Assembly (NCBI GenBank): GCA_964481305.1
Contig: CAYZTF010000001.1
Span: forward strand, 3,575 to 32,456
Direction: 5' to 3'
DNA length: 28,882 nucleotides
Source: an uncultured Candidatus Bathyarchaeia archaeon
Lineage (GTDB): Archaea > Thermoproteota > Bathyarchaeia > RBG-16-48-13 > JAGMEO01
Within the stretch, counting starts at the first letter, position 1, and each line of letters starts with the position of its first letter. The position numbers were made by a program, and so were the translations under genes. Below, piece by piece: positions 10,536 to 10,648 of the stretch. The notes under the pieces were generated by a model, which did no database searches, was not told where the DNA came from, and worked only from the letters and a program-made list of their open reading frames with translations.

Positions 10536-10648
10536 GGCGGCCCGTTTCCGGAATAAACCGTGTACCGTGCTTGGGTAAGCCTGCTTCTTCATCGGTAGCA
10601 GCATACCTTTGTCGAGGCCGTCATGCACGGTGATCTCCGGCGGGCGCC
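10536..10648 (-). ncRNA. candidate H/ACA guide RNA 1 (core hairpin 10561-10631)
   Basis: Lower stem ACCGTGC/GCACGGT directly followed by ACA. Pocket arms ATGACGG and CTTACCCAA. Enclosing GC-rich stem. TATA-like TTTATTTC about 24 nt upstream. Confidence 0.55.

Follow-up and report, generated by a model that had tools for sequence, protein, structure and literature searches.

A minus-strand hairpin (10648-10536; henceforth hairpin A) lying downstream of pheT in a Bathyarchaeia genome is very probably a box H/ACA guide RNA. An earlier note, made from the sequence, had proposed a hidden H/ACA-like RNA on this strand, and the proposal is borne out by covarying lower and upper stems (P1 and P2), an ACA in all aligned homologs, a K-turn, a spacing of 14-16 nt, a TATA-like box and the presence of Cbf5 and L7Ae genes. 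Beyond this, we lean towards a reading in which hairpin A and a neighboring plus-strand hairpin (hairpin B) derive from an ancient two-hairpin H/ACA RNA, with A directed to the peptidyl-transferase centre (PTC) of 23S rRNA and B to helix 69, and with A inverted here.

The locus and its genomic setting

The window, by which we mean the whole stretch of 28,882 nucleotides that was analysed, comes from a metagenome-assembled genome of Bathyarchaeia (Thermoproteota), with an assembly of 647 kb in 104 contigs. The completeness estimate of 82% for this genome (G000) seems generous, its 647 kb comparing with 1-2.7 Mb in relatives. Genes for Cbf5 (with the DKCLD domain) and L7Ae are both present in it; none for Nop10 or Gar1 was found in this incomplete assembly, from which 23S and 16S rRNA are likewise absent.

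Both hairpins are situated in a spacer of 345 nt between pheT (8809-10515, plus strand) and a tyrS/trpS-like gene (10861-11964, plus strand). An Rfam search of the window recovers a 5S rRNA and three intron-bearing tRNAs, all outside the spacer; within it, nothing relevant was found at either the gathering threshold or E<=10. The three tRNA genes (1256-2082) have long or multiple introns, and ARAGORN, unlike Rfam, finds none of them. We also considered SRP RNA and RNase P RNA as the identity of the 330-nt conserved spacer and ruled both out, the spacer consisting of two independent H/ACA hairpins. The SRP RNA of the genome sits on contig C7 (276-584), and RNase P RNA (RF00373) went undetected anywhere in the assembly.

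Structure of hairpin A

The region 10648-10536 folds on the minus strand as one long hairpin (MFE -44.5 kcal/mol, z = -2.9) because an outer helix, P0, goes on past the ACA and encloses the H/ACA hairpin together with its ACA. Read on that strand, the order is ACCGUGC, AUGACG-G, CCUC, GACAAA and GGUA-UGCUGC-UACC (the apical stem and its loop), followed by GAU-GA-AGAAG-C-AGGC, UUACCCAA, GCACGGU and ACA. The lower stem P1, correctly read in the earlier note, pairs ACCGUGC (10625-10631) with GCACGGU (10564-10570) and is directly followed on its 3' side by the ACA box (10561-10563); the stem, ACA and pocket of that note are all present where it placed them. The 5' guide strand, AUGACG plus a G that also closes P2, occupies 10618-10624 and the 3' guide strand, UUACCCAA, preceded by a C of the P2 side, 10571-10578.

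The upper stem P2 had been taken for a short one of 3 bp (CCT/AGG); it in fact has 5 bp, with GCCUC (10614-10618) covarying with G-(C bulge)-AGGC (10579-10584). This also shifts the position of the ACA: it is 16 nt from the top of the pocket by the counting of the earlier note and 15 nt from the P2 base when the covariation-supported upper stem is used. P2 runs via G.A/A.A and a C-G pair into a K-turn (10589-10610), which has AAA at 3n-1n (10610-10608), the C-stem GGUA/UACC with its loop (10607-10594), the bulge GAU (10593-10591) and a GA (10590-10589) opposite AA. The distance from the K-turn to the pocket is 9 positions on the 5' side and 9-10 on the 3' side. In all, a P1 of 7 bp, a pocket of 6 nt and 8 nt and a P2 of 5 bp make up an H/ACA layout that is backed by covariation in 30 sequences and recurs in 35 further ones. 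The ACA itself is located in an internal loop closed by the outer helix and has no free 3' tail.

Two other readings of these elements were rejected. A bulge-helix-bulge motif is absent from the outer helix, every bulge of which is on the 3' strand, and a C/D-box reading of GAUGAAGA fails in that there is no D box, the motif being a strand of the K-turn.

Distribution and covariation of the hairpin A family

Of 23 genomes of the same order, 12 yielded a copy with a first covariance model, built on the sequences of the window and of genomes G004, G003 and G007. With a second model, one copy each was recovered in 101 of 151 Bathyarchaeia genomes (one genome has two); in a phylum-wide sample this model gave matches in 41 of 151 genomes, including other classes of Thermoproteota, with no homolog detected in most of the non-Bathyarchaeia families of that sample. 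Two of the carriers from other classes, G238 and G168, are complete genomes in a single contig. We found no H/ACA RNA of Bathyarchaeia or Bathyarchaeota in Rfam or the literature searched. The hairpin A family itself has no entry in Rfam.

Covariation in relatives, which the earlier note had named as a check, is extensive: double (compensatory) changes are seen in 13 of the 15 modelled pairs across 30 aligned homologs, in which 91.6% of cells are paired as against 27-43% with slid partners, and none of 500 shuffles reached the covariation score. In P1, both partners have changed in 6 of the 7 pairs, with ACCGUGC/GCACGGU in the window corresponding to ACCGUGC/GCAUGGU, UCAUGC/GCAUGA and CCCAUG/CAUGGG in G004, G003 and G007, respectively. 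P2 varies comparably (GCCUC/G-AGGC, GCUCC/GGAGU, GACUC/GAGUC) and leads to the K-turn by way of two pairs that are not Watson-Crick and one or two that are; the pairs of the apical C-stem also covary. In P0, covariation with G004 and G003 is apparent in GGC/GCC against ACA/UGU and in G-C against U.G. Since the G.U pairs would read as A.C on the plus strand, the RNA strand has to be the minus strand.

These patterns make it very improbable that there is no RNA gene here and that the hairpin is instead a terminator or attenuator of pheT, a small protein gene or a chance inverted repeat. What can be said for such readings is that the hairpin comes directly after the pheT stop codon, that a 51-aa ORF (10512-10667, minus strand) can be drawn over it and that no Rfam family matches. 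Against them, the compensatory changes and G.U pairs fit minus-strand RNA only, indel lengths are not multiples of three, the single copies extend to places away from pheT, and both the ACA and the K-turn are conserved. Two genomes of the same family share 86-87% identity with the window over the spacer and only 77% over the adjoining end of pheT.

Motif conservation is equally pronounced. The ACA follows P1 in every aligned homolog, at 14-15 nt from P2, and an outer helix begins directly after it throughout the phylum with differing, covarying sequences (CCCGCCG/CGGCGGG, CCCACCG/CGGUGGG, CCUCGCC/GGCGAGG, UGCCUUGCC/GGCAAGGCA and UUGCCCUA/UGGGGCAA). Of 65 homologs, 64 have a bulged K-turn strand of the form NNU-GA; facing it is GA in 56 of the 65 and AA in eight, including the window, which consequently has one G.A and one A.A pair, the latter at 2b.2n. 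The description of the K-turn as non-canonical therefore holds for the window, while the family is otherwise canonical; given the 56 members with GA, the A at 2n in the window is lineage-specific. A K-turn with A.A at 2b.2n is known from Thelohania Kt-23, and L7Ae still binds it.

A proposed two-hairpin RNA and the inversion of hairpin A

Hairpin B (10726-10831, plus strand) is the partner H/ACA hairpin of A, with compensatory changes in 12 of 15 predicted pairs among 27 sequences. It comprises an outer helix (GGGCG/CGCCC), a P1 (10739-10746 with 10804-10811), a P2 (CUCAGC/GCUGAG), the guide strands UGAGAGAG (10747-10754) and AGUUGGUU (10796-10803), a K-turn (U-AA / UAU-GA), an ACA at 10813-10815 and an AUA at 10828-10830. 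In most genomes A and B follow each other in tandem on one strand, A first. Directly after the ACA of each, an outer helix begins that clamps the hairpin.

Of 80 Bathyarchaeia pheT loci, 24 have hairpin A no more than 2.4 kb downstream of the gene, and in 23 of these it is on the strand of pheT. The sole inverted copy among the 24 is from a close relative (locus L014), whose arrangement is like that of the window. Overall, the inverted state of A is seen in the window, in G004, in G002 and in G003 (the last being the same contig as L014), with the B of the window staying on the plus strand. Ancestrally, hairpin A is probably the 5' hairpin of a two-hairpin RNA downstream of pheT, and it is A that became inverted in the window's family.

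The earlier note had pointed to a TATA at the right distance, and a kept A/T-rich, TATA-like box is indeed found ~27 nt upstream of hairpin A. This candidate promoter (10673-10680) reads TTTATTT on the minus strand and AAATAAA on the plus strand, and hairpin A (first base 10648) and a plus-strand hairpin (first base 10704) begin at about equal distances from it. The same box is present in G004, and G003 has a TTTATAAA box. The hairpin at 10704-10721 (plus strand; CCUCCG/CGGAGG) precedes hairpin B. The inversion of hairpin A may have turned the box into a bidirectional archaeal promoter, and we propose that A and B would now be transcribed divergently from this one A/T-rich element.

Two further elements were noticed around the hairpins. 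In most Bathyarchaeia copies (L113-L126 and others), a small K-loop-like hairpin of the form GCGAUGA-N3-6-GAGC is present ~20-45 nt upstream of A, 5' of the outer helix, and it is missing from the window's lineage; it would be a possible third L7Ae site. After hairpin B, many genomes have a TATA-like box, CTTTTAAGT, ~15-25 nt before the next gene. In the window this box is at 10839-10846; the next gene there is tyrS, with a GTG start at 10861 that points to a leaderless mRNA.

The predicted target of hairpin A

In place of the unassembled 23S of the window's genome, we used the 23S and 16S rRNAs of G007, from the same order, as the target rRNAs, with E. coli numbering assigned by alignment to landmarks (m5U1939, m5C1962, Psi2580, Psi2604/2605 and H. 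marismortui m3U2619/Psi2621). Two sites come into consideration: the single-stranded PTC linker between helices 90 and 93 (GAGCUGGGUU-UA-GACCGUCGUGAG in G007) and helix 71 (GUCGGGUAAG-UU-CCGACGUGCAUG). The 28-nt stretch spanning the former is identical in G007 and in G001, a member of the window's family; the 29-nt stretch spanning the latter is identical in these two and in G009, also of the same order.

On balance, the guide sequences favor the PTC linker, around U2585/U2586, as the conserved target. ACCCA pairs here with UGGGU (2580-2584) and (AU)GACGG with CCGUC(GU) (2590-2596). Near-invariance of pocket bases across classes is confined to ACCCA and GACGG, all of whose bases are paired at this site: GACGG is kept in 50 of 50 aligned Bathyarchaeia copies and in 13 of 15 from other classes (the exceptions being UACGG in L145 and GGCGG in L146), and ACCCA in all aligned homologs except that of G008, whose AUCCA is wobble-compatible. 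The loose pattern GGGU-N(2-8)-CCGUC has its sole occurrence in the 23S and 16S of G007 at this site. With AACCCA, which is frequent outside Bathyarchaeia, U2585 is paired too, and U2586 becomes the first unpaired base at a spacing of 14. Moreover, the summed duplex energies of the two arms favor the PTC over helix 71 for five of five guides (-17.0 vs -14.4 kcal/mol in the case of the window).

There are also traces of a link between guide and rRNA variation at position 2579 of 23S. Directly after ACCCA, the guide has a G in 15 of the 24 genomes with C2579 and a U in the unrelated G009 and G263, which have A2579; counter-examples have A opposite A (G006, G012) or U opposite C (G059, G101). With relatedness taken into account, the association lacks significance, and this co-variation is suggestive only. 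Families without a detected hairpin A (f9, f19, f21, f23, f24 and f27) mostly have A for C at 2579, and some have U for A at 2589. In the sampled Bathyarchaeia, loss or divergence of the guide may go with change in the rRNA.

The earlier note had assigned the guide to helix 71, with conversion of U1955 to pseudouridine. In this model, in which helix 71 would be the target in the window's lineage either by itself or besides the PTC, CUUACCC pairs with GGGUAAG (1948-1954), U1955-U1956 stay unpaired, and the 5' arm pairs through CGG, and three more pairs past one A.A mismatch, with CCG(A)CGU. The complementarity of both arms around the UU does exist in helix 71 of the G007 23S. Under canonical rules (UN unpaired, and opening of the P2 closing pair permitted), this site ranks first in the G007 23S and 16S for the guides of the window, G004, G007 and G009, and its score was reached by shuffled rRNA in 3 of 300 cases for the window, 0 of 300 for G004 and 4 of 300 for G007. 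It offers 7+3 bp, exactly UN unpaired and an ACA spacing of 16. Further, 21 of 30 Bathyarchaeia copies retain YUUACCC, even those with a re-registered P2 or a broken pair 10 (A.C in G117, G123 and G074), the helix 71 stretch is unchanged in the same-family and same-order genomes mentioned above, and multi-target H/ACA guides are known, one such RNA of S. islandicus serving eight sites (PMC11077068).

However, this pairing requires the closing G-C pair of P2 to open, has just three contiguous pairs in the 5' arm and leaves two near-invariant As, one within GACGG and one following CCC, mismatched. The match of the 5' side at 10 of 12 nt that had been cited in its favor would require the lower stem to unwind, and we do not count it for this reason. 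YUUACCC occurs in none of the 14 parsed copies from other classes, where the arm is AACCCA, CACCCAGG or UACCCA and the match to helix 71 is thereby lost. In family f20, helix 71 has undergone a compensated change (GUCGUGUAAGUUACGAC; U1949/A1957), and the guides still read GACGG and UUACCCA. The UU(U) before ACCC finds G.U/A-U partners in the conserved GG(A) on the opposite, 5' strand, so that its conservation can be explained without helix 71. In addition, helix 71 and the PTC site share the pattern GGGU-N5-CCGNCG, which is why one guide can match both and why part of the helix 71 match comes free with that to the PTC. No pseudouridine in helix 71 is reported in the archaeal maps compared, among them that of S. 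islandicus (PMC11077068). With an arm specific to Bathyarchaeia, a weaker energy and guides that do not track the change in f20, we do not retain helix 71 as the conserved target and regard a guide function for U1955 in the window's lineage as less likely than one for the PTC.

It is also rather unlikely that the Bathyarchaeia hairpin A is dual-specific, having kept the ancestral PTC site (U2586) and gained U1955 of helix 71 via the YUUACCC arm. Were this so, a pseudouridine would be expected in the bridge-B3 helix (helix 71), a site without report in the organisms compared; the guide would exploit the shared GGGU-N5-CCGNCG, with the weak G.U pairs of the pocket opening differently for each substrate.

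The preferred PTC pairing itself departs from the textbook. Family-wide it consists of 5-6 + 5-7 bp, and the target bases left unpaired number 4-5 (U2585/U2586, A, G, A), where two would be canonical; De Zoysa 2018, as summarized in PMC7075261, puts the tolerance at up to four unpaired substrate bases, not five. In the window, U2585 and U2586 lie opposite the two Us of the 3' strand, and the 3' arm has its last paired base at a spacing of 13 from the ACA, under the usual 14-16. With flexible pairing (1-6 unpaired bases and 0-2 opened P2 pairs), neither hairpin beats shuffled rRNA, so complementarity alone cannot settle the target. In S. islandicus there is no pseudouridine at the equivalent of the PTC site (PMC11077068). 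The Pyrococcus Psi2585/2603 were discarded as matching sites because these are in P. abyssi numbering, which places them elsewhere in domain V.

Such departures lend some substance to a different view, namely that an RNP with the H/ACA fold serves as an assembly chaperone by binding pre-23S rRNA at helix 71 or the PTC, or acts on a non-rRNA substrate, and forms a pseudouridine at neither site. No site pairs fully canonically across the family, the consensus guide of Bathyarchaeia lacks a fully canonical site in the G007 rRNAs and in the window's whole genome, and an ACA locked beside an outer helix is unusual for docking of the Cbf5 PUA domain. Yet the guide bases are near-unchanged across the phylum while the stems vary freely, a pattern in keeping with a pairing partner of universally conserved sequence; hairpin B matches helix 69, a classic site; and atypical pockets are active elsewhere (PMC7075261, PMC11077068). 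We accordingly consider this view improbable.

The predicted target of hairpin B

For hairpin B, the best rRNA match is helix 69 of 23S around U1915/U1917, with 8 bp + 4 bp and five bases unpaired. The strand UGAGAGAG is complementary to CUCUCUUA (E. coli 1920-1927) and GUUG/GUUA to UAAC (1911-1914), which leaves UCUGA unpaired. In one lineage helix 69 has ACUUUCUU in place of ACUCUCUU, which results in one mismatch with the B guide in either register. The converse assignments, helix 69 for hairpin A and the PTC site for hairpin B, were both rejected.

Proposed mechanism and its implications

In the scheme that we propose, 10648-10536 on the minus strand would be the gene for a box H/ACA guide sRNA hairpin, which would assemble with L7Ae at the K-turn, Cbf5 at the lower stem and ACA, Nop10 and Gar1 into an RNP directing pseudouridylation of 23S rRNA. 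ACCCA/UGGGU and (AU)GACGG/CCGUC(GU) pairing would present U2586 (or U2585), the position that stem-loop 1 of H. volcanii sR-h45 modifies, to Cbf5, and hairpin B would serve U1915/U1917 in helix 69, as does stem-loop 2 of the haloarchaeal sR-h45. Hairpin A would represent the 5' hairpin of an ancient Thermoproteota RNA that is usually encoded downstream of pheT on the same strand, and the inversion would have taken it together with its outer clamp helix.

These observations provide a covariance-supported family of H/ACA guides for Bathyarchaeia, an abundant uncultured lineage of sediments, and predict pseudouridines in their 23S rRNA at the equivalents of E. coli 2585/2586 and, on the helix 71 model, 1955. 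The unusual traits of hairpin A are its clamped ACA, A.A K-turn, large pocket loop and the inversion that splits the two hairpins. The family is a natural test case for how many unpaired substrate bases a pocket tolerates, whether Cbf5 can read an ACA clamped by the next helix and whether an A.A K-turn still recruits L7Ae. The occurrence of a double guide for the PTC linker and helix 69 in haloarchaea and, as predicted here, in Thermoproteota suggests either an ancient arrangement or a double origin.

Comparison with known guide RNAs

Hairpin A has the lower stem, pocket, upper stem with K-turn or K-loop and ACA at 14-16 nt that are seen in Pyrococcus Pf9/Pab160 and Pab91 and in S. islandicus sR115 and sR435. 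Like these classic single-hairpin archaeal H/ACA sRNAs, it has a bipartite guide, predicted to be for rRNA; unlike them, it lacks an Rfam match, its ACA runs straight into a conserved outer helix and the window copy has the A.A at 2b.2n of the K-turn. With the atypical H/ACA-like RNAs of Pyrobaculum and Sulfolobus, which have neither a lower stem nor an ACA (PMC11077068), it would share the status of a Thermoproteota pseudouridine guide that is off the textbook layout. In S. islandicus, helix 69 is served by sR148 (PMC11077068).

The closest parallel is with H. volcanii sR-h45, as an analogy of layout and target sites drawn independently of sequence comparison. That RNA has two hairpins, of which the 5' one is responsible for Psi2605, at the third U in the UUUA stretch between H90 and H93, and the 3' one for two pseudouridines in helix 69 from an unpaired four-base UNUN (PMC7075261). 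Several differences are evident. The first stem-loop of sR-h45 pairs by 5 + 3 bp with a canonical UN, whereas hairpin A would pair by 5-6 + 5-7 bp further out with 4-5 bases unpaired; in lieu of the 56-nt pseudoknot linker of sR-h45, each hairpin here is clamped by an outer helix right after its ACA; and the two hairpins of the window are on opposite strands. At the same time, both systems consist of two hairpins, each of which has a K-turn in its upper stem and is followed by an ANA/ACA. The distance from K-turn to pocket, which is 9-10 in archaeal H/ACA RNAs and 8/10 in the first stem-loop of sR-h45 (PMC7075261), is similar in hairpin A (9/9-10), and at helix 69 more than two target bases are left unpaired by sR-h45 and would be by hairpin B. 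In each case, the 5' hairpin is, or is predicted to be, directed to the H90-H93 linker (through GGGUU..GACC around UUUA in sR-h45) and the 3' hairpin to helix 69.
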